64,000 bases of DNA from Thermoplasmata archaeon (lineage in GTDB: Archaea; Thermoplasmatota; Thermoplasmata; WALJ01). Position numbers and translations under genes: made by a program. Location: assembly GCA_027006785.1 (NCBI GenBank), contig JALTFR010000042.1, positions 30,113 to 94,112 of the forward strand. Reading direction: 5' to 3'. How positions within the stretch are numbered: the first letter of the stretch is position 1; each line of letters opens with the position of its first letter. Positions 3,182-62,587 of this stretch are shown one piece after another. Below the pieces are notes generated by a model. The model had not been told where the DNA came from and did not search any database. It saw only the letters and a list, made by a program, of their open reading frames with translations.

Positions 3182-3182
3182 T

Positions 3183-4541: not shown

Positions 4542-4862
4542 CTTCACTTAAATTTGATTCTTTACCTCTCTTCACCATCCTCTACACCTATCCATGCTCT
4601 CCCCTAACCCATTTCCTTTCCCTTCAGTTTTTCGATCCAGTGGAGGCTCTTCTCCATATCCCCTTTCCTTCCCATCTCCCTGAACATCTCAAGGCTTTCC
4701 TGCAGGTACTCCATGCCCTGCTCTCCCCCTGTGACGATGCCTTTCAGCCTGAGGTACCATCCCTGCCTCTCCCGAGATGAAAAGCGTGCGCCCATGCCCG
4801 CCTTCGGCATCCCTGAGGAGTGAATCCAGTTTCCCGAGCTCTGCCCCCCGGTCCGCAATGCC

Positions 4863-4900
4863 TGCCATTCGGGGAAATAATGGTATAAAGGTATATAAGG
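4863..4900 (+). repeat. Direct repeat copy 2 (same 19-nt core plus tatataagg tail)
   Basis: Identical core to 594..612; sits 250 bp upstream of the OLD-family gene. Confidence 0.8.
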
Positions 4901-5149
4901 GGTTTGGGGGGTAGATGTATATCTGTTATTTCAGAGGAAGAGCGCTCGGAGAGATAGATTTATATAATGAAAAGGCATAGTGTGGGTAAGATGATATGAT
5001 AAAGAGCGAAGGAGAACTGATGGTTTCGGTTAATCAAAAAAAGAGGAAAAGAACATGAGCAAGATTGCTACACGATTTGCCATAACATCGGTTAAACGGC
5101 TTCACACAGTGAATGCGCAGATTTTCAATAATCTTAGTGAGGAATAAGT

Positions 5150-31467: not shown

Positions 31468-31582
31468 CCATATGCCTCCTCGATCTTTAAATTTCCAGAT
31501 AGACATCTGGAAATACTATATATAGTTTTCTCAGATTACAACTCTATGCGCTCTCCGCTTGTGAAAAATAGCAAAACATATT

Positions 31583-40880: not shown

Positions 40881-41720
40881 ATGCTTAAAAAGCCCCTTGC
40901 GGCTCTGGTCTTACTCGTACTTATGCTCTCTGCGATAGCGTCAGGTTCAGGCACATCCGGCATGAGTGTCACGGACTATGTCTGCGACCCAACATACACG
41001 AACCACATTTTCTCAAATTTCTCAAATCCCATCATATACCCCGGAAATACGGGAAACCTGAGATTCAGGTTGAACAACCCTTACAACATGACCATGCACA
41101 ACATCTCCCTGACAGCAGAGATATATGCATTTGCAACGCTTGAGGAGTACAGAACAATAGACGAGACCTTCAATGATGCTCCTATAATAGAACAGAGCGG
41201 AAGCAGATTGTACAATGACCGTGTCAGTGAACTCCTGCCCTCTATGAACATAAGCTATTCCCTCAGCATGAAAACGGAAAAAGGAACGCCTCAGGGCGTG
41301 TACTATGTACGATTTATACTTGAATTCGATTACTCCAACTCAACGAATAACTCTGCAAGCCACTTTATCATGCTCTCCATGTCATATTACTCCAAAGAGC
41401 AGTGGAAATATGCAGCACAGGAACCCACCGATTCCGATATGCCCTATTACAGACACGGAATAAACGTGACATATCTCAGTCTCTTCCACCCTGTTGATGC
41501 CATCATACCGTTCACAAGCTTTTCAGTCCACAAAGGAATACCGAAATGGCCGATGTTCGTCCTCGAAGGAGCTGCCGCATTCTTCGCCGTACTGTCATAT
41601 ATGTATTACATGAATGACAACTATGGAAAATACAGATGGTTAGACGAGAAGACCAAGCAGATGTCTGGCAAATACCAGAAGTTTAGGAGAAGACTTTACG
41701 AGAGGGCGCGCCAGAAGTGA
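40881..41720 (+). CDS. Secreted/membrane-anchored N-glycosylation-rich hypothetical protein
   Basis: Signal peptide 'MLKKPLAALVLLVLMLSAIASGSG'; C-terminal TM 'FVLEGAAAFFAVLSYMYY' plus basic tail; many N-x-S/T. Confidence 0.4.
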   Translation: MLKKPLAALVLLVLMLSAIASGSGTSGMSVTDYVCDPTYTNHIFSNFSNPIIYPGNTGNLRFRLNNPYNMTMHNISLTAEIYAFATLEEYRTIDETFNDAPIIEQSGSRLYNDRVSELLPSMNISYSLSMKTEKGTPQGVYYVRFILEFDYSNSTNNSASHFIMLSMSYYSKEQWKYAAQEPTDSDMPYYRHGINVTYLSLFHPVDAIIPFTSFSVHKGIPKWPMFVLEGAAAFFAVLSYMYYMNDNYGKYRWLDEKTKQMSGKYQKFRRRLYERARQK

Positions 41721-42779
41721 CGGATGATCTATATCTCCGATTTCACCTATTATTCTCCTTGAATTCTCGTTGTTAAGCTCGTGAATTATCTTTTCCATGT
41801 CCTTCTCCGACAGCCGGGCGTAGATTTTTCTTATGTACATGCCGTTCTTTATCTCCTTTCCGACTGATGAGCTCCATGCCCTCTGATATGCAGATAATAA
41901 TGGTAGGCACTCCTTATCCTTATCAAATGACTCAGATAGGGCATCTACCAGCATTTGGGCAGCGCTGAGCCCGGGATAAAGTCCTCCTCCCGAGAGGGGC
42001 TTTACCTGCACTGCCGAGTCTCCCACAAGAGCCACACCGGGCCCAACGATGTTTCTAGAATAACCTATGGGTATTGAACCGCCATATATGGACAGAGAGT
42101 GCCTTTCAAGCTCAGAAAAACGCTTTTTCAGTATGTCCTGGGCCGAAGGGTCACCTGAACTTGCAGTACCTATGAGCGAACCCTCATCCAGAGGAATCTG
42201 CCACGTGAAAAATGAGGATTCCGGTTCAGGCCATATCCTGACCTCGTCCACTTCTTCCGGGGACTGTGCCTGAAATGCCCCGAGAATCTCTCTGGGCCGG
42301 TCCATATCGAATCTTCTTGCGACCAGTGAACTGGCTCCGTCCGCACCCACTACGAAACGGGAGCGCACCTTCACTTTTTCACCCGATGAGCTCAAAGTCG
42401 TTATCATTCCCCTTCCATCCTTCTCGAATGAGACGACCCTCGCACCAAGCATTATATCCGCACCCGCACGTATGGCTGAAGATGCAAGCTCTCTGTCAAA
42501 CATAGCCCTATCTATGGCTATTGCCTTCACATCTCCCGACTCTATGAGAAGTTCTTCAGAGCCCGAGTACACGATGGCGGACCTGAGTTTCTTTTTTACC
42601 ACCCGCCGACTTGAGCCAGCCATATCGAGAACACGGGGACTCACAAGCCCAGAACACTGCAGAGGCCGCCCAATCTCTCTGTGCTCTTCCACGATAAGTA
42701 CTGAAAAACCCTTTTCTGCCATACCTCTGGCAACAAAAGAGCCTGCCGGTCCTCCGCCGACCACCAGGACATCATACAT
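41640..42779 (-). CDS. Geranylgeranyl reductase family (digeranylgeranylglycerophospholipid reductase-like) flavoprotein
   Basis: FAD fold 'YDVLVVGGGPAGSFVARGMAEKGFSVLIVEE'; GGR-like 'GDSAVQVKPLSGGG'. Confidence 0.7.
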   Translation of the reverse strand: MYDVLVVGGGPAGSFVARGMAEKGFSVLIVEEHREIGRPLQCSGLVSPRVLDMAGSSRRVVKKKLRSAIVYSGSEELLIESGDVKAIAIDRAMFDRELASSAIRAGADIMLGARVVSFEKDGRGMITTLSSSGEKVKVRSRFVVGADGASSLVARRFDMDRPREILGAFQAQSPEEVDEVRIWPEPESSFFTWQIPLDEGSLIGTASSGDPSAQDILKKRFSELERHSLSIYGGSIPIGYSRNIVGPGVALVGDSAVQVKPLSGGGLYPGLSAAQMLVDALSESFDKDKECLPLLSAYQRAWSSSVGKEIKNGMYIRKIYARLSEKDMEKIIHELNNENSRRIIGEIGDIDHPSLLARPLVKSSPKLLVFARHLLGLLV

Positions 42780-42783
42780 CCTA

Positions 42784-43524
42784 TCACTTCGGCGTTATCC
42801 CTCTGTTCGTGACGGAATACTCCATGATGCCCAGCCTCTCAGGATGGTTACGAACCTTCTGAATTATGAGATAATGGATGAAATTCCTGTCCTTTCTCTG
42901 TTTCTCCAGCTCTATTATCGCATCCACGATTTCTTCAACTCCGCTCTCCGTCTTCGGTTCATGCACCCCTTTCAACATGGTCACCAGCACAACACCCCTC
43001 TGATGCTGGCTATGGGCCTTTATCGTTCTAAGGGCCGACATGACCTGCTGAGGATCATAATATTCGAGGAAGAAATCAAGGGAATCTATTATGACTCTGA
43101 AAGGGGGCTTCAGCTTTGATATCTCATAAGTGACCTTCGTGAGAAAATTGACTCCTTTTGATATGTCCTGCTCCCTCAATCTCTTCAGGTCGCGTATGGT
43201 AACTCCTTCCTGACGATAACGACTTATCTCAACCTCCCTTGCAAGGACCTTCTCGTAGTATTCGCCACCTATGTTGACTATGTTAATATTGGGGTCCCAT
43301 CCGAAATGTTCCATTGTCTTTTTGACATCCTCGTCCCGTTCGTTGGTGGTGAAGTATATGACATTCTCCTTTCCCACGCCGGCGGATGCAAACTGCTTGG
43401 CAAAGAGTTCCGTACCCGAACCCGGTGAGCCCTGCACCAGTATCATGAAACCCTCGGGAACTCCACCGAGAAAATTGTCCAGTTCAGGAATTCCTATTGC
43501 TCTGTGACCGGACTCCATTACCAT
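42784..43524 (-). CDS. KaiC/RecA-superfamily ATPase-like protein with degenerate P-loop
   Basis: 'GIPELDNFLGGVPEGFMILVQGSPGSGTELFAKQF' (GxxGxGTE, no Lys); Walker B-like 'RVIIDSLDFF'. Confidence 0.6.
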   Translation of the reverse strand: MVMESGHRAIGIPELDNFLGGVPEGFMILVQGSPGSGTELFAKQFASAGVGKENVIYFTTNERDEDVKKTMEHFGWDPNINIVNIGGEYYEKVLAREVEISRYRQEGVTIRDLKRLREQDISKGVNFLTKVTYEISKLKPPFRVIIDSLDFFLEYYDPQQVMSALRTIKAHSQHQRGVVLVTMLKGVHEPKTESGVEEIVDAIIELEKQRKDRNFIHYLIIQKVRNHPERLGIMEYSVTNRGITPK

Positions 43525-44096
43525 TCCTCCGTTATCTCTATACGCTCATCACATACCATTGTCAGGGCATGGTCTATCTCATCCGAGCTCTGCTCCTTTA
43601 TTGACAACACTATGGTGTATGCATTCTTAGACCTCAGGCTGTTGAAAAGTATGTGCATGAACTCCGAGAGTATCCTTATATTGTTGTGTATGGCAAGAGA
43701 GTTTATGGAATCTATGAATATGAGCTTTCCTCTCTTGGGATCCAGCTTTCTCAGAAGATACTCAACCTTCAGCATTATGTTTTCCAGCATGGTTGCGCTC
43801 TCCACATAGAGCACGTGCCCGTTCGTCGTCTTATTGTCCATGAGAACGCTTGAACCACAATCCACGAAGTATATGTGGTCTCTTTTCATCTCCAGCAGGT
43901 CCATCACATTTATTATGGAGGCAGCCGGAAGGGTAGAATTTATGTATATCACGTCAAGATTCTTCTCTATTGAGACTTTTTCCGTAAGTGTACGAATAAC
44001 ATCGAAATAGCTCTCGGAGCTGACCTCAAGGGCTATGACCGATGCCTCACTTATGCCCTTCATCTTCTCGTATGCCTGATCCATCACTCCCATCAC
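43518..44096 (-). CDS. RecA-fold domain protein lacking a P-loop (DUF835-like), middle gene of the KaiC-like cassette
   Basis: 'KLIFIDSINSLAIHN' Walker-B-like strand, no GK[ST]; 7-nt and 4-nt overlaps with neighbours. Confidence 0.45.
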   Translation of the reverse strand: MMGVMDQAYEKMKGISEASVIALEVSSESYFDVIRTLTEKVSIEKNLDVIYINSTLPAASIINVMDLLEMKRDHIYFVDCGSSVLMDNKTTNGHVLYVESATMLENIMLKVEYLLRKLDPKRGKLIFIDSINSLAIHNNIRILSEFMHILFNSLRSKNAYTIVLSIKEQSSDEIDHALTMVCDERIEITEEW

Positions 44097-44862
44097 TCGC
44101 CACCTCCTTTGAGCATCGGAACAAGAAGGACACCTATCGGTGTGAGATCGAGCACGTATTTTGCACGGGAGTGACTGGTGCCCCTCATCTTGACGACCTG
44201 AAGCGTCCTCAGAAGGTCGCCTCTACGCTCATAGTTTCCCATCAGTATTATACCGTCTGCAATGGCCTCCTCAACACCGTACGTGGAATATCTCGCGTCG
44301 GATGGCAGTATTTCAGAGACAAGAAGGCTCGTACATCCCAGCTGCGAGAGCTTCTTCCCGAGTTTGAGTATGAAATCGCGTATCTTCTCCTCGGTCTTCA
44401 GCTGGAAGCATACAGATGTCACGGAGTCTATGACGAGCCTCTTTATGTTGAGCTCCTTTACGATGTCCCCGAGAGCATTGACAAGAAGGTCGATCTCTTC
44501 AAAGGAGAACTCGGATTTCTGAAGGCCCAGCCGTTCATATATGGCAGGCATATCTATGAATATCAGTTTTCCCTTCTTCAAAAGGTCCTCACTGAAGAAC
44601 TCATAGGGAATAAGGTTTGCAAGAAGCTTTTCTGAGGCCTCTGTTACCGAGACAAAAAGGCAGTTCTCACCGTAGAGAGCTCCGTGGACAAGAAACTCCA
44701 GACTGGTTGTTGTCTTACCCGTACCGCAACTTCCTGTTACAAGTACGGTGTTTCCCCGGGGTATCCCGCCGTTCAAAATTGCGTCGAGAGTGTCTATTCC
44801 TGTGCGGCATCGGGGTCTGTCAGAAGATTTTGCTGAGCCTTTCTTTGCAGTCTCTGAGGTCA
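44093..44862 (-). CDS. KaiC-like RecA-superfamily ATPase (intact Walker A/B)
   Basis: 'GIDTLDAILNGGIPRGNTVLVTGSCGTGKTTTSLEF'; Walker B 'RLVIDSVTSV'; start preferred at 'MTSETAKKG'. The track start 45064 adds an atypical Cys/Phe-rich extension. Confidence 0.65.
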
Positions 44863-45090
44863 TCGCAGGGGTATGAGCGCTACATACATATATCTTTTTT
44901 GCCACAGAACTCGAAAATGACCCTGTGATGTGAAAAGTTGAAAAATAAACAAGATATGTAAAGTAGCTTGAAAAAGTGTGGTTTTTTCGTGTCTGACAAA
45001 AGAAAAACCTTATATACCCATCTTCCATACAAGATGTTGTGCCCGATGAGGGGCTGAAACACAAGATGTGTGATAGACAGAGGTAGATAG

Positions 45091-45555
45091 ATGAGATGCC
45101 CGTACTGTGGAAGTGTAGACACCAAAGTCGTGGATTCCCGCTACTCCGAAGACATGGAAGCGATACGCAGGAGGAGAGAGTGCCTTAACTGCGGAAAGAG
45201 GTTCACAACATATGAAAGGGTTGAGATCGCTCCGATAATCGTGATAAAAAAGAACGGAGAGAAAGAGGAGTTCAACGCTGAAAAGATAAAGAAAGGGATG
45301 AAGCGCGCCTGCGAAAAGAGGCCTATAAACGAGGAGGACATCGACATAGCAGTGCGGGAGATTGAGAGAGACCTGAGAAAAAGGGATTCCATCGAGGTTT
45401 CAAGCATGGAAATAGGTGAGATGGTCATGGAAAAACTTAGGTCGATGGACAAGGTTGCATACATCCGGTTCGCCTCGGTCTATCGCGAGTTCGAGGACGT
45501 GGAAACGTTCCAGAAGGAAATAAACCTGATATTGGAAAAATACGGAGGCAGATAG
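45091..45555 (+). CDS. nrdR: Transcriptional repressor NrdR (Zn-ribbon + ATP-cone)
   Basis: 'MRCPYCGSVDTKVVDSRYSEDMEAIRRRRECLNCGKRFTTYERVE'. Confidence 0.85.
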   Translation: MRCPYCGSVDTKVVDSRYSEDMEAIRRRRECLNCGKRFTTYERVEIAPIIVIKKNGEKEEFNAEKIKKGMKRACEKRPINEEDIDIAVREIERDLRKRDSIEVSSMEIGEMVMEKLRSMDKVAYIRFASVYREFEDVETFQKEINLILEKYGGR

Positions 45556-45556
45556 A

Positions 45557-48025
45557 ATGGGACTGGAAAAAGTAAGGAAAAGAGACGGAAGGGTCGTGGA
45601 TTTCGACCAAACGAAGATAACTGAGGCCATAAAGAAGGCATTCATAGCCAAGGGTTATATGCCCGAGACAGCCAACCTGCTGTCTAAGAGCCTTGCGGAC
45701 AAGGTTGTCGGAAAACTTGAGAAGAGGTTTGCAGACGAGATACCTGAGATAGAGGACATTCAGGACCTTGTTGAAGCCACCCTTATAGAAGAGAACTTCA
45801 GCAAGGTCGCAAAAGCATACATATTGTACAGAAAGCAGAGAGAGGATGTGAGGAAGCTCAAGGAAACGATGCTCGAGGTTGATAGAGTAATGGACGGCTA
45901 CCTCGACAGAATAGACTGGAGGGTGAATGAGAACAGCAATTCCGATTACTCTCTTTCAGGGCTCCTGATGCATGCGGCAGGCTCCGTTGTTGCGAACTAT
46001 GTACTCACAAAAGTATATCCGAAGGAGATTGCGGATGCCCACAGGAACGGTGATTTCCACATACACGACCTTTCCATGGGAATAGCCGGTTACTGTGCCG
46101 GATGGAGCCTAAAACAGCTTCTTACAGAGGGTTTCAACGGTGTTGACGGAAAGGTTGCGTCATCTCCGCCAAAACACCTTGAGACAGCGCTCGGCCAGAT
46201 GGTCAATTTCCTCGGAACCCTTCAGAACGAATGGGCGGGTGCAATGGCATTTTCCTCCTTCGACACATATCTCGCACCCTTTGTCAGAGTGGACAACCTG
46301 AATTACAAACAGGTAAAGCAGGCCATACAGCAGTTCGTGTTCAGCCTGAATGTCGCAAGCAGGTGGGGCGGACAGACTCCCTTCACCAACATAACTCTGG
46401 ATTGGGTCGTTCCAGAGGATATGAAGGAAGAACCCGCCATAGTTGGAGGAAAGCTGGCCGACTTCAATTACGGGGATCTTCAGAAGGAAATGGATGTGAT
46501 CAACAAGGCATTCATAGAGGTCATGATGGACGGAGATGCCAACGGCAGACCGTTCACATTCCCGATACCCACATACAATATAACATCGGATTTCGACTGG
46601 GACAGCGAGAACGCCACATTGCTCTTCGATATGACCGCAAAATATGGCCTGCCCTACTTCCAGAACTTCATAAACAGCGACCTCAACCCGGGAGATGTCA
46701 GGTCAATGTGCTGCAGGCTCCAGCTGAACCTGAAGGAACTTAAGGCAAAGACAGGAGGTCTCTTCGGTTCCGGAGAGTGCACGGGTTCCATCGGAGTGGT
46801 GACTCTGAACATGCCCCGGATAGGATACCTTTCAAAGACGAAGGAGGAGTTCTTCGAGAGGATAGCGAAGCTCATGGACCTTGCAAAGGAGTCCCTTGAG
46901 ATAAAGAGAAAGGTTGTCAACCGGAACATGGAAAATGGCCTTCTGCCCTATACCAAGAGATATCTCGGAACGCTGGACAACCACTTTTCCACCATAGGCC
47001 TGGTGGGAATGAACGAAGCCGCACTCAACTTCATGGGTAAGGACATAGGAAGTGAAGAGGGAAGGAAGTTCGCAATAGAGGTGCTGAACTTTATGAGGGA
47101 CAAACTGACACAGTTCCAGGAAGAGACCGGACACATATACAACCTCGAGGCTACGCCTGCAGAGGGAACTTCCTACAGGCTTGCGAGGATTGATAAAGAG
47201 AAGTATCCGGACATCATAACCGCCGGAGAGGACGAGCCATACTATACCAACTCCACCCAGCTTCCAGTGGGATACACGGATGATATCTTCGAGGCCCTCG
47301 ACCTTCAGGATGACCTTCAGAAGCTCTATACCGGCGGAACCGTCCTTCACGGATTCCTCGGCGAAGAACTGGACAATGCGGAGTCCTGCAAGCTCCTTGT
47401 CAGGAGGATAGCGGAGAATTACAGGCTACCATACTACACGATAACACCGACATTCTCCATATGCAAGCAGCACGGATACATACCGGGTGAGCACTTCACC
47501 TGCCCCAAGTGCGGAGAGCCCACAGAGGTCTATTCGAGGGTTGTGGGCTACTTCAGGCCGGTCCAGAACTGGAACAAGGGAAAGAAGGAGGAATTCAAGG
47601 AGAGGCTTGAGTTCAACATAAAGAAGAGGGGCATAAGGCCGCCCGCACAGCATGCCGTTTCTGCACCCAAACCCGCTGAAGAGGGCCCTGCAATGGATAT
47701 AATGAGTTCCTCGTCCCCACAGGCTAGCGGAGAGGTTGCAGCGGAAGTAACGCCCATCTCTGCCGGAATACCTGAGGAGAAGAGTGTTGCAAAGTACATC
47801 TTCTTCTGGGCCGAACACTGCCCCCACTGCCCGGCGGTAAAGATGTATCTGGCGGATAAGGCTGCGGACATCCCGGGAGAACCAGTAAACGTTGACACGG
47901 AAGAAGGCAGGGAACTTGCCCTCAAATACGATATAATTGGCACTCCAACAGTGATACTTCTGGATGAGAGCGGTAATGAGCTGTCAAGGGTCAACAACAT
48001 CGGAGGACTGCGCAAATGGTTGTAA
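45557..48025 (+). CDS. nrdD: Anaerobic (class III) ribonucleoside-triphosphate reductase NrdD with N-terminal ATP-cone and C-terminal CPHC thioredoxin-fold fusion
   Basis: ATP-cone 'KVRKRDGRVVDFDQTKI'; Zn-site 'CPKCG'; glycyl-radical motif 'RVVGYFRPV'; C-terminal 'YIFFWAEHCPHCPAVKMYL...IIGTPTVILLD'. Confidence 0.85.
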   Translation: MGLEKVRKRDGRVVDFDQTKITEAIKKAFIAKGYMPETANLLSKSLADKVVGKLEKRFADEIPEIEDIQDLVEATLIEENFSKVAKAYILYRKQREDVRKLKETMLEVDRVMDGYLDRIDWRVNENSNSDYSLSGLLMHAAGSVVANYVLTKVYPKEIADAHRNGDFHIHDLSMGIAGYCAGWSLKQLLTEGFNGVDGKVASSPPKHLETALGQMVNFLGTLQNEWAGAMAFSSFDTYLAPFVRVDNLNYKQVKQAIQQFVFSLNVASRWGGQTPFTNITLDWVVPEDMKEEPAIVGGKLADFNYGDLQKEMDVINKAFIEVMMDGDANGRPFTFPIPTYNITSDFDWDSENATLLFDMTAKYGLPYFQNFINSDLNPGDVRSMCCRLQLNLKELKAKTGGLFGSGECTGSIGVVTLNMPRIGYLSKTKEEFFERIAKLMDLAKESLEIKRKVVNRNMENGLLPYTKRYLGTLDNHFSTIGLVGMNEAALNFMGKDIGSEEGRKFAIEVLNFMRDKLTQFQEETGHIYNLEATPAEGTSYRLARIDKEKYPDIITAGEDEPYYTNSTQLPVGYTDDIFEALDLQDDLQKLYTGGTVLHGFLGEELDNAESCKLLVRRIAENYRLPYYTITPTFSICKQHGYIPGEHFTCPKCGEPTEVYSRVVGYFRPVQNWNKGKKEEFKERLEFNIKKRGIRPPAQHAVSAPKPAEEGPAMDIMSSSSPQASGEVAAEVTPISAGIPEEKSVAKYIFFWAEHCPHCPAVKMYLADKAADIPGEPVNVDTEEGRELALKYDIIGTPTVILLDESGNELSRVNNIGGLRKWL

Positions 48026-48717
48026 TGAACGGGATGCAGAACACTTCGTTCATAGACTATCCCGGGAAGATAGTCACCACCATCTTCTTCGGGAACTGCA
48101 ACTTCCGCTGCCCCTATTGCCACAACTCCGACCTGGTCTTCAACAGGGACCTTCCGCAGATCGAGCACACGGTACTGCTGGAGCATCTGAAGAAGAGAAA
48201 GGGCATGCTGGACGGTATATGCATAACAGGGGGTGAGCCCACCCTCCATCCCGACCTTCCCGAACTGATAAGGGATGTGAAGGAACTGGGCTTCCTTGTT
48301 AAACTGGACAGCAACGGAACGAACCCGCGCATGCTGGAGGGACTCTTCTCCGACGGGCTGGTGGATTACATCGCAATGGACATAAAGGCACCAAAGGAGA
48401 AATACTCCGAGGTCGTGAAGGTGAATGTCAACATGGATCTCATTCAGCAGAGCATAGACCTGATACGAGAGATGGCTCCGGACTACGAGTTCAGGACCAC
48501 CATACCCAGGGAACTGCTCACCGAAGACGACATAATGTCCATAGGAGAGTGGATAAAGGGGGCGAAGAGGTATGCGCTCCAGCAGTTCAAGCCGAACAAG
48601 CCGCTTGACCCCGCATGCCTGGAATGCCATGGATATACCAAAAAGGAAATGGATGCCATGGCAGAGCGCCTGAAAGGGTACTTCGACGAGGTCCTGGTGC
48701 GGGCAAAGGACGACTGA
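48016..48717 (+). CDS. nrdG: Anaerobic RNR activating enzyme (radical SAM) NrdG
   Basis: 'GNCNFRCPYCHN' CxxxCxxC; 10-nt overlap with nrdD. Confidence 0.8.
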   Translation: MVVMNGMQNTSFIDYPGKIVTTIFFGNCNFRCPYCHNSDLVFNRDLPQIEHTVLLEHLKKRKGMLDGICITGGEPTLHPDLPELIRDVKELGFLVKLDSNGTNPRMLEGLFSDGLVDYIAMDIKAPKEKYSEVVKVNVNMDLIQQSIDLIREMAPDYEFRTTIPRELLTEDDIMSIGEWIKGAKRYALQQFKPNKPLDPACLECHGYTKKEMDAMAERLKGYFDEVLVRAKDD

Positions 48718-51643: not shown

Positions 51644-51683
51644 GGGATGGAGAATATACCCATCTGCTGAGGTGGCATATTAT

Positions 51684-53363
51684 ATGGCAGAATCAAGCAA
51701 GGTTTCAGAAAAGGATTCGAAGAAATTCGATCTCTTCTCAATAATGGAGCCATTCATACGTAAAACTCCAAAAAAGATAATGATACCCGCAAAGGAGGCG
51801 GAAGAAAAGAGCGACGAGGGTTCCATATACACGAACATACCTCCGATAACGGACCCCAACATAGACATTCTGGAAATAAAGCCCGTTATTGAGGATTTTG
51901 CATATGCCAGAATAATATATGACAATGCCAACAGCGAATACATATATGAAGCCATAGAACCTCAGTTGAATGATAAGGAAAAGGAATACCTGACACTGAT
52001 AAAGGATTCTCTCAGCAAGACAATGGACTACGAGTGGGAGAAACTTGCCGACCATGACAAAAGAGAATACCTTGTGGAGAGCATAGAAAGTTTCATTAAA
52101 AGCCGAAATATAGAACTTCCGGATGTCAGCAGGGAGAAGGTGATGTACTACCTTGTGAGGGATTTCATAGGATACGGTCGAGTTGATATCCTGATGAAAG
52201 ACGACGACATAGAGGATATCTCCTGCGATGGTACCAATATTCCGATATTCATATTCCATAAGAAGTATGAGTCAATAAAAACCACCGTGAAATTCGAAGA
52301 AGACGAGATTCTGGATTCATTTATAATATCCCTCGGGCAGCGCTGCGGAAAGAACATATCCGTGGCAACACCAATTCTAGATGGTACCAGCAAGGAAGGT
52401 CACAGGATTCAGGCCACTTATTCACACGAGGTCACCACCAGAGGCTCGTCCTTCACAATAAGGAGATTCAAAGAGAAGCCCTTCACACCTGTGGAACTCG
52501 TGAAATTCAAAACTGCCTCTCCCGAGATGATAGCTTACCTCTGGATGATGGTTGAAAACGGAAAATCCCTCATCGTCTGCGGAGGCACTGCCTGTGGAAA
52601 GACCGCAACCCTCAACGCTATAAGTCTGTTCATACCTCCTGGAGCGAAGATAGTCACCATGGAGGATACCCGGGAGATAAACCTGCCGCATGAGAACTGG
52701 ATACCCGGTGCAACAAGGAGCGGTGTGGGGGAAAGAGGTGCCGATGGAAAGGCCGCGGGTGAGATTGATATGTACGACCTTGTGAGGGCAGCATTGAGGC
52801 AGAGGCCGAACTACATCATAGTCGGAGAGGTCAGAGGTAAGGAAACATACACCATGTTCCAGGCCATGGCAACGGGCCATACCACATATACCACCATGCA
52901 CGCCGATTCCGTAAAATCCATGGTTCACAGGCTTGAGAACCCACCTATCAATACGCCAAGAATACTTCTTACCGCCCTCAATCTCGTCATAATCCAGAGT
53001 TTTGCCAGACTTAAGGATCAGCAGGTTAGGAGAATAAAAGAGATTGTTGAAATAGTCGGCTTCGAGGCGGAGACCAATGAACTCGTAACAAATCAGGTCT
53101 ATGCTTGGAATCAGATAACGGATAGCTTTATATATAAGGGTCATAGCTTTATACTGGATGCGATTATGGAAATGAAGAATATGACACACGAGGATATGCA
53201 GAATGAGATGGACAGGAGAACCGAGGTTATCGAATATATGGTAAAAAAGGACATAACGGATTACAGGGAGATTGCTAAGATAATCACTGCTTATTACAAA
53301 GACCCCGAAGAGACGATAGACCGTATTAGAGAAGAACTTGCGGAGGAAGAGAATGAGTCCTGA
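51684..53363 (+). CDS. FlaI/TadA/GspE-family secretion ATPase (pilus/archaellum-type), paralog 1
   Basis: Walker A 'CGGTACGKTATLNA'; 'IIVGEVRGKETY'; His-box 'TTMHADS'. Confidence 0.8.
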   Translation: MAESSKVSEKDSKKFDLFSIMEPFIRKTPKKIMIPAKEAEEKSDEGSIYTNIPPITDPNIDILEIKPVIEDFAYARIIYDNANSEYIYEAIEPQLNDKEKEYLTLIKDSLSKTMDYEWEKLADHDKREYLVESIESFIKSRNIELPDVSREKVMYYLVRDFIGYGRVDILMKDDDIEDISCDGTNIPIFIFHKKYESIKTTVKFEEDEILDSFIISLGQRCGKNISVATPILDGTSKEGHRIQATYSHEVTTRGSSFTIRRFKEKPFTPVELVKFKTASPEMIAYLWMMVENGKSLIVCGGTACGKTATLNAISLFIPPGAKIVTMEDTREINLPHENWIPGATRSGVGERGADGKAAGEIDMYDLVRAALRQRPNYIIVGEVRGKETYTMFQAMATGHTTYTTMHADSVKSMVHRLENPPINTPRILLTALNLVIIQSFARLKDQQVRRIKEIVEIVGFEAETNELVTNQVYAWNQITDSFIYKGHSFILDAIMEMKNMTHEDMQNEMDRRTEVIEYMVKKDITDYREIAKIITAYYKDPEETIDRIREELAEEENES

Positions 53364-54369
53364 AGTGAGCGATGCGTTCAAAGGCCTTGATACGAAGAAA
53401 TGGAGCCTTTTCCACACCAAAAGAGTGAAGACAGGCGACGTAATAGAGGGTTATGGGCCACATATAGTCTATCTGCCAAAAGAGGCTGTTCCGAGCCAGA
53501 TAAAGCTCACTCCATTTCAGCAGACCGCTCTGAGGATAATGGGAAAAAAGGCGGAGAAAGAGGTGGAAAAATACCCTGATCTGGATGAATGGCTGGTAAA
53601 GGCAAGGATGAGGATGAGGGCGGAGGAATACATTGCGTACGTGCTTCTGACAACATATCTAATGTGGGCAATAGCCGGTGTCCTTGCTATCATCTTCATA
53701 GCGCTCTACAGCGTAATTGGAGTTCTTTCGATAATGATTGCTATTATAATGATAATGATCGCTTTCATGATCAAACCTCTCATGCTTTCGATGCCTAAAT
53801 CGAAGGCAAAGTCCAGGGGCAGGAACATAGATAAAAAACTGGCATCCGCAATGTCATTCGTCGCATCACTGGCATCCGCCGATGTCAACGTTGATGTCAT
53901 ATTCAAGGAACTGGCAAAACAACCAATATATGGAGAGATTCAAAAAGAGGCCGAATGGATAACGAGAGACACAGAACTTCTTGGCATAGATATTCTAAAT
54001 GCCATAAAGGAAGGAGCAAGAAGAAGCCCCTCGGTAAAATGGCAGGACTTCCTTCAGGGAGTGGTTACCACATCCACGTCAGGCGGACAGCTGAAACCGT
54101 ACTTCATAGTCAAACTGCAGGAATTCGAGAAGGACAGCCAGCTTGATAACAAGAGAAGGACTGAAACTCTGGGAATGATGGCAGAATCGTATGTCACCGT
54201 GGTCGTTGCGTTCCCACTGTTCCTTATAGTTATCATCGCTATCATGGCGATAACCAACGGACAGGCCGAATCCAGCATACCTATGCTGTATGCGGTGGAT
54301 GCCCTTATGATACCTGGCTCGCAGGGTGTGTTCATTTACATCATGTGGGGTCTTACACAGGAGGCTTGA
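53353..54369 (+). CDS. Single-T2SSF-domain platform protein (TadB/EpdJ-like half of FlaJ)
   Basis: TM segments plus T2SSF domain 'LASAMSFVASLASADVNVDVIFKELAKQ...LNAIKEGARRSPSVKWQDFLQGV'. Confidence 0.65.
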   Translation: MSPEVSDAFKGLDTKKWSLFHTKRVKTGDVIEGYGPHIVYLPKEAVPSQIKLTPFQQTALRIMGKKAEKEVEKYPDLDEWLVKARMRMRAEEYIAYVLLTTYLMWAIAGVLAIIFIALYSVIGVLSIMIAIIMIMIAFMIKPLMLSMPKSKAKSRGRNIDKKLASAMSFVASLASADVNVDVIFKELAKQPIYGEIQKEAEWITRDTELLGIDILNAIKEGARRSPSVKWQDFLQGVVTTSTSGGQLKPYFIVKLQEFEKDSQLDNKRRTETLGMMAESYVTVVVAFPLFLIVIIAIMAITNGQAESSIPMLYAVDALMIPGSQGVFIYIMWGLTQEA

Positions 54370-54370
54370 A

Positions 54371-55288
54371 ATGGCAGAAGACAGTTTCGATCTGGAAAAA
54401 GCGAAGAAAACCGCAAAAAACATCCTCTACATCTCCTTGGCCATAGCCATGATATTCATAGTGGTGGGTCTCCTAGAAACGATAGGTGCAGTTGATATAC
54501 CCCCATTCTCAGCATTCGATTACTTCATATTCGCAATAATGACGATCATGGGCCCTTATGGAATCTATAAGGGAAAGATAGACAAGACCATAGATGAGAT
54601 CGAGAAGAGGCTCCCGGACTTCCTGAGGGATGTCGCAGAGGCTGGAAGGTTCGGTATGACCCTGGCGGACGCCATAGTGGTCGCAGCATCCGGAAGATAT
54701 GGGAAATTGACTCCCGAGATAAAGAAGATGGCCGCACAGATTCAGTGGGGTGTTCCTGCAACACAGGCGCTCAAGCTCTTTGCGGACAGAATAGATACCC
54801 CTCTTGTCAGAAGGGTCACCACGATAGTCATAAAGTCCTCGGACGCAGGAGGTAATGTGGCAGATGTCCTTTCAATGGTCTCCCACAGCGTCAAAGAGGT
54901 CCACCATGCAAAAGAGGAGTTAAGCATAGAGATGGTGACATATCTGGCGGTCATTTACATAGCTTTCATGGTCTTCATAGCCACCATACTCATCCTTGAC
55001 CTGACATTCCTGCCTCAGATGGAACAGGCAGGAGAGGCTCTTTCGGGTTCTGGTGACATAGGTGGTGGGGCAGGTTCAGTTACACTGATACAGTCCCAGT
55101 ACATACCCGAGATAGAATTCATATTCACCCTTACGATCATGATACATGGTGTCGGTGATGGGCTGGTAGCTGGAATCCTCTATAAAGGAAAGATATCTGA
55201 GGGAATGAAACATGCATTCATAATGGTCTTCATAGGGTTCATCACATTCAGGATTCTCTTTGGAGGCATAGGAGTATTAGGAGGTTGA
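54371..55288 (+). CDS. Single-T2SSF-domain platform protein (TadC/EpdK-like half of FlaJ)
   Basis: ATG 1 nt after the previous stop with SD caggagg; 'FLRDVAEAGRFGMTLADAIVVAASG...WGVPATQALKLFADRIDTPLVRRV'. Confidence 0.65.
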   Translation: MAEDSFDLEKAKKTAKNILYISLAIAMIFIVVGLLETIGAVDIPPFSAFDYFIFAIMTIMGPYGIYKGKIDKTIDEIEKRLPDFLRDVAEAGRFGMTLADAIVVAASGRYGKLTPEIKKMAAQIQWGVPATQALKLFADRIDTPLVRRVTTIVIKSSDAGGNVADVLSMVSHSVKEVHHAKEELSIEMVTYLAVIYIAFMVFIATILILDLTFLPQMEQAGEALSGSGDIGGGAGSVTLIQSQYIPEIEFIFTLTIMIHGVGDGLVAGILYKGKISEGMKHAFIMVFIGFITFRILFGGIGVLGG

Positions 55289-55292
55289 TTAG

Positions 55293-56960
55293 ATGTCAGG
55301 AACAGAGGTTAAAGAGAAGAAGGGAGAAATGCCTGCGCCAGGGTTCAAAGAGCGGGTGGTCTCCTTTGCCATAGGAAAGACCCCGGTCAAGATAATGCTT
55401 CCAAAAGAGAAGACATCCAGAGACCTTTCAAAGGAGATTACTCTGATACCCAAAATCGTGGACATGCATGTGAATGAGATTGAGATAGAACCCGTTGAAG
55501 AACCGTACTCTTATGTGAGAATAAAGTATGATACGATTTCCAACGAGTACCTATATGAGGTCATAGAACCCCAGTTGAATGACGATGAAGAGGAAGTTCT
55601 GATAGCTGTGAGAAAGATTCTTGTTGACCGCTTCTCACTTGTTGACAAGGAAGAAATGGACAAGAGGGAAGATATTCTCAGAGAGATGACAGAAGATGCC
55701 ATAGATGAGACAGGGATAGAGCTCAGCGAGGTTTCACGTGAAAGGATTTTCTACTACATAAAAAGGGATTTCCTCGGCTTCGGCGCCATACATGTTCCCA
55801 TGATAGAGAAACAGGTCGAGGATATATCCTGCGACGGTGTGAACATCCCAATATACATCTACCACAGGAAGTACGGCTCCATAAAGTCGAACATAAAGTT
55901 CGAGAGCGCTGAAGAACTGGATAATTTCGTTGTGTGGCTGGCACAGAGGTCCGGAAAACACATCTCGGTTGCAAGCCCGATGCTGGATGCGACCATGCCG
56001 GATGGCTCCAGACTTAACGAAACACTTGGAACCCATGTTACAAAGAGAGGCTCTTCCTTCACAATAAGGCGTTTCAAAGAGGACCCGTTCACTCCGATAG
56101 ACCTCATAAGATTCAAGACAATGAGCTCGGAGATGATGGCTTATCTCTGGATCGCCATAGAGAACGGGCAGTCCATGCTCATATGTGGAGGTACTGCGTC
56201 TGGTAAGACCACCACGCTGAACGCAGTCCTTCTGTTCATTCCTCCTCAGATGAAGATTGTAAGTATAGAAGATACAAGAGAACTCAACCTTCCGCATGAA
56301 AACTGGGTTCCGACCCTTACGAGGAGCGGTTTCGGCGCAAAGAATACAGTAACGGGAAAAGCGGCTGGAGAGATAGATATGTTCGACCTTCTGGCTGCAG
56401 CATTGAGGCAGAGGCCACAGTATATGATGGTCGGAGAGGTTCGAGGTGCCGAGGCATATGTGGTCTTTCAGGCAATGGCAACGGGAAAGAGCGCGTACAC
56501 CACATTCCACGCAGAGGATGTTCAGGCAATGGTGCACAGGCTTGAAAATGACCCGATAAACCTGCCAAGGTCGCTCATAGCAGCTCTGGATATCGTTCTT
56601 CTGCAGGGACAGGTGAAGGTCGGAAAGAACATGACGAGGAGGGTTAAAGGACTTATAGAGATAGTCGGAACCGACCCTCAGACAGACGAACTGATAACAA
56701 ACAACGCATACATGTGGAACCCTGCAGACGACACATTTAACTACAGCGGACACAGCTATGTGTATGAAAAGGTCGCACTTTCCAAGAACTGGTCTGCCAG
56801 AGAGATGGAACGCGAAGTGAAAAGGAGAAAGGACATCCTGGATTACATGAGGAAGATTGAGGTCAGCAACTACAGAGAGGTCGCCCGCATAGTCTCCGCA
56901 TACTACAAGGACAAGAAGAAGGTCATGGAAGAGGTCAGAAGGGTGCTCGAAGAGGAATGA
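55293..56960 (+). CDS. FlaI/TadA/GspE-family secretion ATPase, paralog 2
   Basis: Walker A 'CGGTASGKTTTLNA'; 'MVGEVRGAEAY'; 'TTFHAED'; same domain order as paralog 1. Confidence 0.8.
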   Translation: MSGTEVKEKKGEMPAPGFKERVVSFAIGKTPVKIMLPKEKTSRDLSKEITLIPKIVDMHVNEIEIEPVEEPYSYVRIKYDTISNEYLYEVIEPQLNDDEEEVLIAVRKILVDRFSLVDKEEMDKREDILREMTEDAIDETGIELSEVSRERIFYYIKRDFLGFGAIHVPMIEKQVEDISCDGVNIPIYIYHRKYGSIKSNIKFESAEELDNFVVWLAQRSGKHISVASPMLDATMPDGSRLNETLGTHVTKRGSSFTIRRFKEDPFTPIDLIRFKTMSSEMMAYLWIAIENGQSMLICGGTASGKTTTLNAVLLFIPPQMKIVSIEDTRELNLPHENWVPTLTRSGFGAKNTVTGKAAGEIDMFDLLAAALRQRPQYMMVGEVRGAEAYVVFQAMATGKSAYTTFHAEDVQAMVHRLENDPINLPRSLIAALDIVLLQGQVKVGKNMTRRVKGLIEIVGTDPQTDELITNNAYMWNPADDTFNYSGHSYVYEKVALSKNWSAREMEREVKRRKDILDYMRKIEVSNYREVARIVSAYYKDKKKVMEEVRRVLEEE

Positions 56961-60697: not shown

Positions 60698-62587
60698 ATG
60701 AAAAAACGCTTTCTCGTTGCAACTATGGCCATAGTTTTCGCGGCCATGCAGATATCCATGCTCGGAGCAGGTGTTGCCAGTGCTGATACACAGGTTAACG
60801 GAGGATATACCGAATGTGATACGACCCTTCAGATGATACCTATGACACATACGATAGGTGGAGGGACCATACACTGGCATATCACCGGAGAGAATGCAAA
60901 GGAACTCCGAACGCTCATACTGGAAAGACTTGACAATGCCAGTATAAATTATGAAGGAAGGCTTCTGCTTCCCAATGACACTGCAGCCGGTAGAAAACAG
61001 GGAGTGATAGATGAGGCCGAAGTATGGGCCTATGTTGCAGCTGGAGATCATTCTTTCCTTCAGAACTATCTTCAGGGAATACAGAAGATGTGGGTGAATA
61101 ACCAAACAGGTGTCTTTGAGATGAATCCCTCCGGAGATAATTACAAAAGCATAATGTTCCATGGTGTGGATATAACGAGGGCGTCCCTCTCGAATAACAG
61201 AATGTATGTGGATACGAGCGGACTTCTGAACCAGGGTGTGGACTCCACTGCAGATATTGACATCTTCATGACAATAAGCATGAAGGACACCGTAAGGGTC
61301 AATGACATAGACCTGTCCAATCCGGCAGTGCTCGAGGCTCCTTTCAGATGCCTCACAGCCTTCGACAGGAATGGGGATGCCATTGATACAGTTAATTATC
61401 ATGGGGACGGAAGTATGCAGCACTGGACAATCAGTGTTGGGTTTGACAGCTTCTACAATCCAGAGATTAGAACAGGTAAACTCTATCTGATTCGGACTCC
61501 TGCCGGCGAATTATACAGGTATCAGGGAAATGTTCAGGACGGTTCCATCATACAGGAGAGTATGCAGCACAGTGATTTCAACCCTGTTGAGAACCCCCAG
61601 ATACTCTTCATAATCATGATGGTCTTCGGCTATCTTACGGTTGCTCTACCCGGTCATTTCTATCTGAAATACAGGAGCAAATACCCCAAAAAACACCGGA
61701 GCGAGGCGAAGAAACTTAAGGGTGTTCACTGGACCGCAAGGATATTCCTGCTGCTCCTGATACTCCTCTATTTCTGGCCTGTTCTCGGTACTTTCTACCT
61801 GACGGGAGCGATGTACATCGGACTGAGTGTGGGATTCGTAATAATCTCCGGAGCCGTCGGAAAGTTCGCATATGAACGTGCGGAAAATGCCATACCTCCG
61901 GAGTATTTCGAGAAAAAGGAGAAGAAAAAAGTGCGTACATTTGCCCCGGTTGCCCCTCTCAGCGATGACCTGGAGGCCGAACCGTACATATCGGATACCG
62001 AAAAGATACACTGCATCCGCTGCGGAGCACTCATAACCATAAAGAACGGTGAAAACCTCCTTAAGGTCAAATGTCCGGTCTGCGGAGCACTTCAGAAAAA
62101 GGTTGAAAGGGGATACAACCACCTTATACTAGACAGCAACCTGACCAACACCTACAATATGTTCGCTGACTTCCTCAGGGATGGAGATACCGCACTCTGC
62201 ATGAGCACAACAATGCCCGGTAAACTCAAAAGAAACTACGGACTGTCGGGCAAACTTAAGTGCGTATGGCTGACCTCAGCAGGTGGGAAGGACACTCTGG
62301 ATCCGGGAGACATAAATAAGATTGCAGAGACCGTTGAACGGTTTGCAGAGAAATTCCCGGCATCACTGGTTCTCTTCGATGGACTCGAGTATATGGTTGT
62401 TGACCACGGCTTTGACGCGGCATCGAGATTCCTGAAGAGAATCACAGACGTGGCCTCCATGAAGGATATCACTCTCCTCGTTCCGATAAATCCTGCATCT
62501 CTGACAGAAGAGGAGCTCACGGCGCTCAAGGCCATATTCGACAGGGTCGAAGCGCTGGAGGATATAGATGAAAGGGAATTCTTCTGA
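60698..62587 (+). CDS. Receptor-like membrane protein: secreted N-terminal domain, TM block, cytoplasmic zinc ribbon + DUF835/degenerate KaiC-like domain
   Basis: Signal peptide 'MKKRFLVATMAIVFAAMQISMLGAGVASA'; TMs about aa 300-390; 'CIRCGAL...CPVCGAL'; C-terminal 'LVLFDGLEYMVVDHGF...ITLLVPINPASLTEEELTALK'. Confidence 0.5.
   Translation: MKKRFLVATMAIVFAAMQISMLGAGVASADTQVNGGYTECDTTLQMIPMTHTIGGGTIHWHITGENAKELRTLILERLDNASINYEGRLLLPNDTAAGRKQGVIDEAEVWAYVAAGDHSFLQNYLQGIQKMWVNNQTGVFEMNPSGDNYKSIMFHGVDITRASLSNNRMYVDTSGLLNQGVDSTADIDIFMTISMKDTVRVNDIDLSNPAVLEAPFRCLTAFDRNGDAIDTVNYHGDGSMQHWTISVGFDSFYNPEIRTGKLYLIRTPAGELYRYQGNVQDGSIIQESMQHSDFNPVENPQILFIIMMVFGYLTVALPGHFYLKYRSKYPKKHRSEAKKLKGVHWTARIFLLLLILLYFWPVLGTFYLTGAMYIGLSVGFVIISGAVGKFAYERAENAIPPEYFEKKEKKKVRTFAPVAPLSDDLEAEPYISDTEKIHCIRCGALITIKNGENLLKVKCPVCGALQKKVERGYNHLILDSNLTNTYNMFADFLRDGDTALCMSTTMPGKLKRNYGLSGKLKCVWLTSAGGKDTLDPGDINKIAETVERFAEKFPASLVLFDGLEYMVVDHGFDAASRFLKRITDVASMKDITLLVPINPASLTEEELTALKAIFDRVEALEDIDEREFF

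Follow-up and report, generated by a model that had tools for sequence, protein, structure and literature searches.

A conserved Thermoplasmata operon of one predicted active and two inactivated KaiC-family proteins, with type IV pili as a candidate output

Organization of the Cassette and Gene Boundaries

The window, by which we mean the whole 64,000-nt stretch of Thermoplasmata archaeon DNA that was analysed, contains three minus-strand open reading frames (ORFs), here called g1, g2, and g3, in the arrangement first described for them. They are listed with the two regions that flank them:

44864..45090, no strand: intergenic region separating the divergent genes g1 and nrdR, sequence read directly, holding a TATA-like ATATAT
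44093..44863, minus strand: g1, single-domain KaiC-family ATPase of 256 aa, catalytic activity predicted
43518..44096, minus strand: g2, short inactivated KaiC-fold protein without a P-loop, 191-192 aa
42784..43524, minus strand: g3, KaiC-family pseudo-ATPase of 244-246 aa, Walker A lysine lost
41640..42779, minus strand: FAD-dependent geranylgeranyl-reductase-family gene, beginning 4 nt past the g3 stop

The original prediction placed the three ORFs at 42784-44862, a span that holds except that its end falls one base short. The g1 ORF covers 44093..45064; initiation at its conserved ATG (44863-44861) yields a protein of 256 aa, and this ATG lies no more than about five residues from the starts of g1 orthologues. 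The 4-nt (GTGA, g1/g2) and 7-nt (g2/g3) overlaps first reported are those of the longest ORFs, g2 then measuring 192 aa from a GTG start. Close relatives are annotated from in-frame ATGs at 44093 (g2, 191 aa) and 43518 (g3, 244 aa), and with these starts each overlap is 1 nt (TGATG and TAATG). A Shine-Dalgarno-like GGAGGA at 43530-43525 is a better match for the 43518 ATG of g3 (6-nt spacer), and a similar GGAGGTG at 44107-44101 is compatible with both g2 starts (spacer of 4 or 7 nt). To judge from these junctions, g1, g2, and g3 are tightly coupled whichever starts apply.

The TATA-like element occupies 44893-44888 and precedes the g1 ATG by about 27 nt; the 44864..45090 region may serve as the promoter of g1. 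A scan for bacterial-type promoters and terminators, whose model is not applicable to archaea, gave no excess over shuffled sequence. At the other end, the junction between g3 and the geranylgeranyl-reductase gene reads TGA tagg ATG, and the same gene order is found in the six closest loci (L005-L010); the L005 ortholog of this gene is listed with FAD_binding_3, Lycopene_cycl, and similar Pfam families.

One Canonical and Two Inactivated KaiC-Family Proteins

The identification of g1 as a KaiC-like ATPase is secure (Pfam KaiC PF06745, E = 1.3e-57, 195.3 bits for a gathering threshold of 26.6). We took as KaiC motifs a Walker A GxxGxGK[ST], a Walker B hhhhD, a catalytic Glu after strand 2, and a K-x-R finger in KxRG..H; g1 carries GSCGTGKT (G44-SCGTGK-T51, containing the GTGKT noticed initially), RLVIDS, SVTE, and VKMRGTSHSR, each conserved in at least 90% of 78 orthologs. 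Walker A takes the form GxxGTGKT in 76 of these 78, and the conserved stretches read SVTE, RLV.DS.TS (Walker B), GVEEAIADG, and VKMRGT.HSR (Lys/Arg finger). These motifs align to the CI domain of KaiC, and among PDB sequences g1 matches KaiC (9.4e-54), PH0186 (7e-41), FlaH (6.9e-5), and RecA (about 2e-4). The protein is thus predicted to be a catalytically competent single-domain ATPase. A weak PADLOC match to mad8, arising from generic P-loop similarity, was rejected as a sign of a defence role.

The g3 protein also belongs to the KaiC family (8.5e-30, 104.3 bits vs. 26.6; DUF7504, 4.6e-9) and aligns with g1 in a profile comparison (hhalign, E = 2e-12). As was noticed at the outset, its Walker A motif ends in GSGTE (G32-SPGSGT-E39) and its Walker B residue (D147) is retained. 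It also keeps a KxR finger (QKVRNH, near residues 221-226). The degenerate loop is itself constant: in all 43 orthologs the residue after GxPGxG is hydrophobic or small, and the next one is E (42 cases) or D (one case), so that both the lysine and the Ser/Thr of Walker A are replaced in 43/43. Other conserved stretches are DSLDFF, Y.T.E, and K.RNHPE. With the P-loop lysine missing, normal nucleotide binding is predicted to be precluded. By its sequence, g3 is an inactivated KaiC (iKaiC), a KaiC-family member that has lost the catalytic P-loop residues; we use the term for the concept of Makarova et al. (2017), as cited in PMC5847659.

The g2 protein is more divergent. GxxxxGK[ST] is absent along its whole length, and none of 38 aligned members of its family has a P-loop. 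All Pfam matches of g2 itself are below threshold (KaiC, 3.9e-4, 20.3 bits vs. 26.6; DUF7504, 0.039; DUF835, 0.11, 12.7 bits vs. 33.1). Within the 38 sequences, KaiC is matched by 36 (E < 0.01), DUF7090 by 21, DUF7504 by 12, and DUF835 by 11, the strongest DUF835 match having an E-value of only 8.7e-4. An AlphaFold2 model of g2 is confident (pLDDT 89.3, pTM 0.88), and Foldseek aligns it with PH0284 (2dr3, TM-score 0.71-0.73) and also with 2w0m, KaiC, and FlaH (4wia/4yds), the top scores going to the KaiC-like proteins PH0284 and SSO2452. The fold is seen by structure comparison only, the family profile matching no PDB sequence at E ≤ 1; hhalign comparisons of g2 with g1 and with g3 (E about 2e-3) are in the correct register, have a low probability, and are suggestive only. 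The family has 27 invariant columns over 38 sequences that are 40-50% identical, and its invariant stretches include VESPTMLENIMLKVEYL and DSINSLAIHNN.KILSEFLH. On the modeled structure, g2 is a second iKaiC, with a KaiC/RecA fold and no nucleotide-binding loop. The RecA fold without a P-loop first proposed for g2 is therefore borne out by the model, whereas its description as DUF835-like is not. Like the g2 domain, DUF835 (PF05763) is short, gives no canonical P-loop match, and occurs as a cytoplasmic tail on membrane proteins of archaea; the two nevertheless form distinct families.

Conservation of the Operon in Relatives

Scanning one genome per species, we found 189 stretches that encode a g2 relative. 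In 78 of 80 nonredundant loci the gene immediately upstream of g2 is g1, the other two loci being cut by contig ends, a regularity far above what chance would produce; g3 is present in 43. In most loci the g1/g2 and g2/g3 junctions fall between -8 and +6 nt, and the triad also occurs in Aciduliprofundum sp. MAR08-339, with genes of 255, 191, and 247 aa. A distant stand-alone g2-like gene likewise follows a g1 ortholog (45% identical, E = 1e-72); this distant pair is followed by a SepRS gene. The g1-g2 pair is thus the old core of the cassette. The three genes form a real operon conserved across Thermoplasmata archaea, all of them are conserved, and none is a decaying duplicate. The gene after the triad varies, from the geranylgeranyl reductase of the window to DUF763 in Aciduliprofundum and an NTP-transferase at another locus (L088), which does not imply a fixed output.

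One active ATPase accompanied by pseudo-ATPase paralogs is what the original prediction likened to the archaeal KaiC hubs of Makarova and colleagues, and the likeness stands: iKaiC modules (Makarova, Galperin & Koonin 2017, mBio, as cited in PMC5847659 and PMC10983859) also place an active single-domain KaiC homolog beside inactivated homologs. The cassette of the window is mostly a well-behaved member of this already proposed class. It also makes a compact and highly conserved test case, with an active subunit, a P-loop-less subunit, and a lysine-less subunit that keeps its finger. To our knowledge, many archaeal KaiC-like genes have no established role, and we know of no experimental test of inactivated and active KaiC copies working together.

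A Possible Link to Type IV Pili

Two features absent from the original prediction concern type IV pili, namely pilin genes beside the cassette in relatives and pilus machinery within the window. Of 37 relatives' loci with long flanks, 31 have Pilin_N genes directly downstream of the cassette and on the same strand, in the slot that the geranylgeranyl-reductase gene fills in the window. Both flanking marker genes are kept in 22 of these 31 loci, and part of the adjacency may therefore reflect inherited synteny; in seven others the pilins are kept though neither marker is conserved. The gap between cassette and pilins is about 130 nt, and the pilin genes probably have their own promoter. Thus, if regulators of type IV pili are recognized by being encoded in or beside a pilin or machinery operon, the cassette is so placed in 31/37 relatives, whereas the 64-kb window contains no pilin detectable with the family HMM and the class III signal-peptide motif. 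What the window does contain, outside the operon, is the machinery:

51672..56960, plus strand: type IV pilus machinery, two ATPase genes (51672-53363 and 55293-56960) enclosing the two platform halves

Its genes match T2SSE (6.5e-36 and 6.8e-32) and T2SSF (1.7e-10 and 3.9e-16) and lie 6.8 kb from the cassette, with unrelated genes between. In Cuniculiplasma divulgatum, the CdiP machinery is laid out likewise: it has a pair of ATPases and a split platform, and its pilins are encoded elsewhere (PMC12448462). An association of archaeal type IV pilus loci with KaiC-family ATPases has been described more generally (PMC4858521); according to that source, cultured Methanomassiliicoccus has no such pilus ATPases.

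The reading that we prefer, and to which we give an even chance of being right, is that the cassette is a translationally coupled Thermoplasmatota operon encoding a KaiC-type, ATP-driven switch, pilus production being the likeliest process under its control because pilin genes are directly downstream in most relatives. A KaiC-family group was reportedly counted by Makarova and colleagues in 2016 among the regulators associated with type IV pili. The g1 protein, which resembles the CI domain of KaiC, would bind and hydrolyze ATP and presumably form rings; g2 would most likely be a docking or adaptor subunit on the g1 ring; g3, with its Walker B motif and a Lys/Arg finger acting in trans, could complete or regulate a neighboring g1 active site. 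Which partners the complex binds would then depend on the nucleotide state of g1, and binding of partners according to nucleotide state is the working mode of KaiC and of the archaellum protein ArlH. Adjacency to the pilins would have been lost in the lineage of the window. On this reading, the pilin genes found beside the cassette in most Thermoplasmata are a concrete candidate output, and the cassette could plausibly supply the control element that is missing for the pili of Thermoplasmatales, whose machinery has two ATPases and no known regulator.

Two characterized proteins offer partial precedents. ArlH (FlaH) is a single-domain KaiC-like protein whose gene accompanies those of a type IV filament; it binds the filament ATPase in a nucleotide-dependent manner (PMC5019145, PMC10983859) and gates the archaellum ATPase (PMC10983859). 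Its structures (4wia, 4yds) align with g2, but the ArlH model gives only 37.7 bits for g1 and 39.5 for g3 against a cut-off of 215, and g1 matches the FlaH structure sequence at only 6.9e-5. Moreover, the cassette lies outside any arl operon (no archaellum gene lies near it in the window) and is not beside a filament ATPase, and it comprises three paralogs instead of one. CirA of Haloferax volcanii is likewise a KaiC-like ATPase genetically implicated in pilin-dependent regulation, its loss suppressing the motility defect of the pilA1-6 deletion (PMC10983859). Unlike the cassette, CirA is located within the archaellum gene cluster, and the available parts of the source describe no inactivated paralog partners for it.

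Receptor Tails and Other Readings of the Cassette

The homologs of g2 (n = 146) are all about 190 aa long. The family as a whole matches 1447 cluster representatives at E ≤ 1e-3, and 36 of the best 150 of these exceed 300 aa, with the g2-like domain C-terminal in nearly all. Domain layout was scanned or read in seven long representatives (P0154, P0160, P0161, P0164, P0185, P0194, and P0255), where the g2-like domain comes after a transmembrane segment and after signal-peptide, Ig-like, or TPR regions. By these architectures, g2 is the free-standing form of a domain used as a cytoplasmic tail by receptor-like membrane proteins, a kinship that suggests a route by which membrane receptors might plug into KaiC ATPases. 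Fusion of iKaiC-type domains to sensor or receptor regions is also reported as a feature of iKaiC modules. In two proteins (P0194 and P0148), a g2-like domain and DUF835 share one polypeptide, indicating that the two domain types work together somewhere in archaea.

A protein of this general kind is encoded in the window:

60698..62587, plus strand: receptor-like membrane protein that has a zinc ribbon and whose C-terminal domain is DUF835 (tail, residues 471-629)

Its cytoplasmic domain had been assigned to the same degenerate family as g2, with the hint of a shared pathway. The receptor does carry DUF835 (PF05763, 3.3e-23, 82.4 bits vs. 33.1, residues 484-614). A family shared with g2 is not borne out: comparison of the g2 family profile with this domain is not significant (E = 0.1), so that no closer tie than a common superfamily can be asserted. 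With the receptor DUF835 domain alone as query, a protein search returned no matches, and its single-sequence AlphaFold2 model (pLDDT 53.8) is too poor for a fold search. The hint of a shared pathway finds no footing in gene order, since the receptor lies 16 kb from the cassette on the opposite strand, and ribonucleotide reductase, thermosome, pilus-machinery, helicase, and PCNA genes intervene. The one syntenic relative found in the metagenome scan (L090, 69% identical) sits in the same unrelated neighborhood; neither it nor the window provides neighborhood evidence linking receptor and cassette.

These data bear on a broader reading, to which we grant a real but clearly minor chance, that the cassette is, in line with the original prediction, a general KaiC signaling hub with no special pilus link, fed by receptor tails of the DUF835 or g2 type, for example that of 60698. 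The DUF835 domain of this receptor, the fused tails of P0194 and P0148, and the lineage-specific gene after the triad would all fit, as would the NCBI name given to g3 in Aciduliprofundum ([quoted passage not shown]). The position of the receptor, the conserved unrelated setting of its ortholog, and the profile comparison speak against the hub, and it leaves the pilin adjacency of 31/37 relatives unexplained.

A more specific form of the pilus-switch reading, which we consider rather unlikely in its entirety, is a mixed KaiC ring in which ATP hydrolysis would fall to g1 alone, the finger of g3 would act in trans, and a docking face would be offered by g2, the whole gating a two-ATPase pilus machine of the Cuniculiplasma type or pilin production. 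The sole support for such a hetero-oligomer of g1, g2, and g3 is the tight translational coupling of their genes. If true, it would give Thermoplasmata pili an ArlH-like switch not described before, and an archaeal counterpart to the Elp4/5/6 or Rad51-paralog rings. These rings also combine several RecA/KaiC-fold paralogs, some without catalytic motifs; PAXNEB (Elp4) is weakly matched by g1 and g3, and Iki1 (Elp5) by 17 of 38 g2 relatives, all below Pfam cut-offs, so the likeness should be taken as an analogy and not as membership.

That the three proteins are instead RadB/Rad55-type mediators of recombination or repair, namely RecA-fold paralogs assisting a recombinase, seems improbable to us. 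Source annotations do include "RAD55 family ATPase" and "recombinase RecA", and DMC1, RAD51 paralogs, and RecA are among the Foldseek matches of g2. Against this, g1 is far closer to KaiC than to RecA, its NCBIfam RadB scores are 26.9 bits vs. 278 and 26.2 vs. 172.4 (g2 and g3 have no RadB match), the best TM-scores of g2 are with KaiC-like proteins, and repair genes do not recur in the neighborhoods examined. The closest sequence match of g1 being cyanobacterial KaiC, a KaiC-based timekeeper, circadian or hourglass, might also be envisaged; we deem it highly improbable, as g1 is a single domain and not a CI+CII pair (NCBIfam KaiC, 150 bits vs. 408 and 114 vs. 546) and no kaiB or kaiA gene occurs in any neighborhood examined. 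In the alignment, the positions of the CII phosphorylation sites read EEAIAD in g1, with no Ser/Thr, so that a phosphorylation-based switch is not evident. Finally, the loss of catalytic motifs might suggest that g2 and g3 are functionless decaying duplicates of g1, a view that retains practically no credibility given their intact ORFs, phylum-level conservation, and own invariant motifs, the constancy of the degenerate g3 P-loop (GxPGxG in 43/43, final E in 42/43), and the confidently folded model of g2.

Organization of the KaiC Cassette

The cassette is a well-conserved new member of the class in which KaiC proteins accompany inactivated KaiC proteins. It consists of three genes, g1 to g3, followed by a reductase gene; reading the ORFs in their longest forms gives

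44093..45064, minus strand, g1, longest form
43518..44096, minus strand, g2
42784..43524, minus strand, g3
41640..42779, minus strand, geranylgeranyl-reductase-family gene, beginning 4 nt after the g3 stop

The g1/g2 junction (GGAGGTG gcga GTG ATG) contains the g1 stop TGA and the g2/g3 junction (GGAGGA ATG GTA ATG) contains the g2 stop TAA, so that the longest ORFs overlap by 4 nt and 7 nt, respectively, as the original prediction had stated for three minus-strand genes. With the internal ATG starts of g2 and g3, which are those annotated in close relatives (191 and 244 aa, respectively), each overlap is 1 nt. The longest g1 ORF is over-extended, as conservation starts near its residue 73 in a comparison of 78 orthologs; translation from the ATG at 44863-44861 yields a 256-aa protein. 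A TATA-like ATATAT (44893-44888) can be read ~27 nt 5' of this ATG, a spacing that would match expectation for a leaderless archaeal transcript.

On the plus strand, the 3' end of a gene at 40881-41720 runs ~80 nt into the convergent reductase gene. Its product (279 aa) combines a signal peptide with a membrane anchor at the C terminus, has no Pfam match, and is also kept in the close relative L005.

One Active-Type and Two Inactivated KaiC Proteins

Judged from its sequence, g1 is a KaiC-family ATPase, as was first proposed, with a canonical GTGKT. It matches Pfam KaiC at 1.3e-57; among proteins of solved structure, its closest relatives are cyanobacterial KaiC (9.4e-54) and PH0186, a single-domain archaeal protein (7e-41), with FlaH reaching only 6.9e-5. 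At least 90% of g1 orthologs keep the Walker A GxxGTGKT, the SVTE glutamate, the Walker B RLV.DS, and the VKMRGT.HSR finger motif. Where the KaiC CII domain has its phosphorylation sites, g1 reads EEAIAD, and the same holds for the KaiC CI domain. In NCBIfam, g1 falls below every equivalog cut-off for KaiC, ArlH, and RadB.

The family assignment of g3, likewise based on sequence comparison, is also KaiC (Pfam KaiC 8.5e-30, DUF7504 4.6e-9; hhalign against g1, E 2e-12), and its expected combination of a mutated Walker A with a retained Walker B was found. In 43/43 orthologs the P-loop reads GxPGxG, with a hydrophobic or small residue next and E last (D in one), and the lysine is therefore never present. 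The protein retains its Walker B (DSLDFF), a single glutamate, and the K.R within K.RNHPE.

For g2, the prediction of a RecA fold lacking a P-loop held, whereas the label "DUF835-like" proved wrong. Alone, g2 yields sub-threshold Pfam matches only; when 38 members of its family were scanned singly, 36 matched KaiC, 21 DUF7090, 12 DUF7504, and 11 DUF835. The family is nonetheless strongly conserved: the alignment of these 38 sequences (40-50% identity) has 27 invariant columns, and none of the members has a P-loop. A confident AF2 model (pLDDT 89.3, pTM 0.88) has KaiC/RecA folds as its best structural matches, namely PH0284 (TM 0.71-0.73), then SSO2452, KaiC, and FlaH. The fold, the absent P-loop, and the family matches together identify g2 as an inactivated KaiC-fold protein.

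Weak sub-threshold Pfam matches to Elongator subunits were also observed (PAXNEB/Elp4 for g1 and g3, Iki1/Elp5 for 17/38 g2 relatives). Because Elp4/5/6 is a hetero-hexamer built from RecA-fold paralogs, we read the cassette's resemblance to it as a suggestive analogy only.

Distribution of the Cassette

A large protein collection contained 146 g2 homologs, each of ~190 aa, from Thermoplasmata or Methanomassiliicoccales-type assemblies, and 189 stretches encoding a g2 relative turned up when one genome was scanned for each species. ORFs called in 80 fetched loci and in the earlier loci were searched with the window proteins. Among the 80 non-redundant loci analyzed, g1 immediately precedes g2 in 78 and g3 was found in 43, a subclade lacking g3 having its next gene straight after g2; in most loci the junctions among the three cassette genes range from -8 to +6 nt. 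A distant stand-alone g2-like gene also follows a g1 ortholog (45% identical, 1e-72), with no pilins nearby. From this survey, the g1-g2 pair appears to be an old core, with g3 as a frequent third member; pilin adjacency appears to be widespread, yet not universal.

The gene at the 3' end of the operon varies by lineage. It is the geranylgeranyl reductase in the window, DUF763 after the complete triad of Aciduliprofundum sp. MAR08-339 (L093 10749-11834), NTP-transferase after the triad of a Methanomassiliicoccales genome (L088 11341-12192), and pilins in most others.

A Plausible Link to Type IV Pili

Pilin genes (archaeal Pilin_N with the class III signal peptide AVSPVIATILMVAITVVLA) lie downstream on the same strand in 68/86 loci, in one to four copies per locus. 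The gap between them and the cassette is ~130 nt, and a promoter of their own is probable. Requiring at least 4 kb of upstream and at least 5 kb of downstream sequence leaves 37 loci, of which 31 have pilins; seven of these 31 retain them with neither flanking marker gene conserved. The window is among the six that lack pilins, as are L006 and L010, two of its closest relatives; across L005-L010, all close relatives of the window, the downstream position is filled by the reductase gene. A search of the whole 64-kb window found no pilin gene.

Pilus machinery is encoded 6.8 kb from the cassette, beyond nrdR, nrdD, nrdG, an NTPase gene, and a thermosome gene:

51672-56960, plus strand, domain matches in order to T2SSE ATPase, T2SSF platform half, T2SSF platform half, T2SSE ATPase

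This unusual layout, two ATPases flanking a platform protein split in two genes, matches the published description of the Cuniculiplasma divulgatum CdiP pilus, whose pilins are encoded ~500 kb away (PMC12448462); it is therefore likely that the organism of the window produces type IV pili. We propose pilus output for the cassette on the basis of the relatives' gene neighborhood, the general association of KaiC with pili (Makarova et al. 2016, PMC4858521), and the precedents of CirA and ArlH (PMC10983859). Caution is called for, as the gene after the cassette differs between lineages and the window has no pilins; the tie is plausible but unproven.

Receptors with g2-Type Tails

A pathway shared with the DUF835-tailed receptor-like protein at 60698-62587 (plus strand) had been suggested, and the general idea fared better than the specific one. 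An exhaustive g2 profile search gave 1447 cluster representatives at E<=1e-3 (514 at E<=1e-10). Of the best 150, 36 exceed 300 aa, with the g2-like domain C-terminal in nearly all of them; ten long proteins were scanned and three sequences read. Seven of them are receptor-like (P0154, P0160, P0161, P0164, P0185, P0194, and P0255), with a signal peptide, Ig-like/TPR regions, a transmembrane segment, and then a domain with g2 motifs, and P0194 and P0148 carry a g2-like domain and DUF835 on a single chain. These fusions and tails lend real, if indirect, support to DUF835 receptors and the cassette belonging to one kind of network. The link to the 60698 receptor itself is weak, because profile comparison of g2 with its DUF835 domain gives E 0.1, its gene is on the opposite strand at a distance of 16 kb, and its sole detected ortholog (L090 10001-11884) occupies the same unrelated syntenic position.

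This receptor evolves faster than its neighbors (69% identity to L090, 77% in the DUF835 tail, versus 80-91% for flanking genes), and its tail alone found no match among 5.8 billion proteins.

Proposed Mechanism

The combination of an active-type KaiC with pseudo-ATPase paralogs is observed, the interpretation originally attached to it being borne out in part. Following the example of KaiC and ArlH, g1 would pass cyclically from one nucleotide state to another, and the inactive g2 and g3 might read or modulate that state. The g3 protein retains residues acting in trans on a neighboring subunit's ATP site, while g2, in which neither the P-loop nor the C-terminal finger region survives, looks adaptor-like. 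The tight translational coupling of the three genes would fit a stoichiometric assembly. Readings of the cassette as a repair mediator, clock, defense system, or pseudogene are disfavored.

Other Features of the Window

662-6877, plus strand, low-GC stretch (38-41%) encoding, by domain content, an EVE + AAA_5 (McrB-like) protein and an AAA_15/AAA_21 ATPase
3138-4541, plus strand, 467-aa partner ORF overlapping the EVE + AAA_5 gene
11576-17437, plus strand, giant predicted surface protein (1953 aa), by domain content
23269-31506, minus strand, giant predicted surface protein (2745 aa), by domain content

The low-GC stretch looks like a restriction or defense islet. The two giant proteins carry beta-helix/NosD, Big_5, NPCBM_assoc, and CarboxypepD_reg domains. 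At 45091-48717 (plus strand), in an archaeal setting, the genes for anaerobic ribonucleotide reductase, nrdD and nrdG, are directly preceded by a gene for an NrdR-type repressor (zinc ribbon and ATP-cone). NrdD, 822 aa long, has a C-terminal thioredoxin-like CPHC domain, at which the L005 ortholog has a faint Thioredoxin match.
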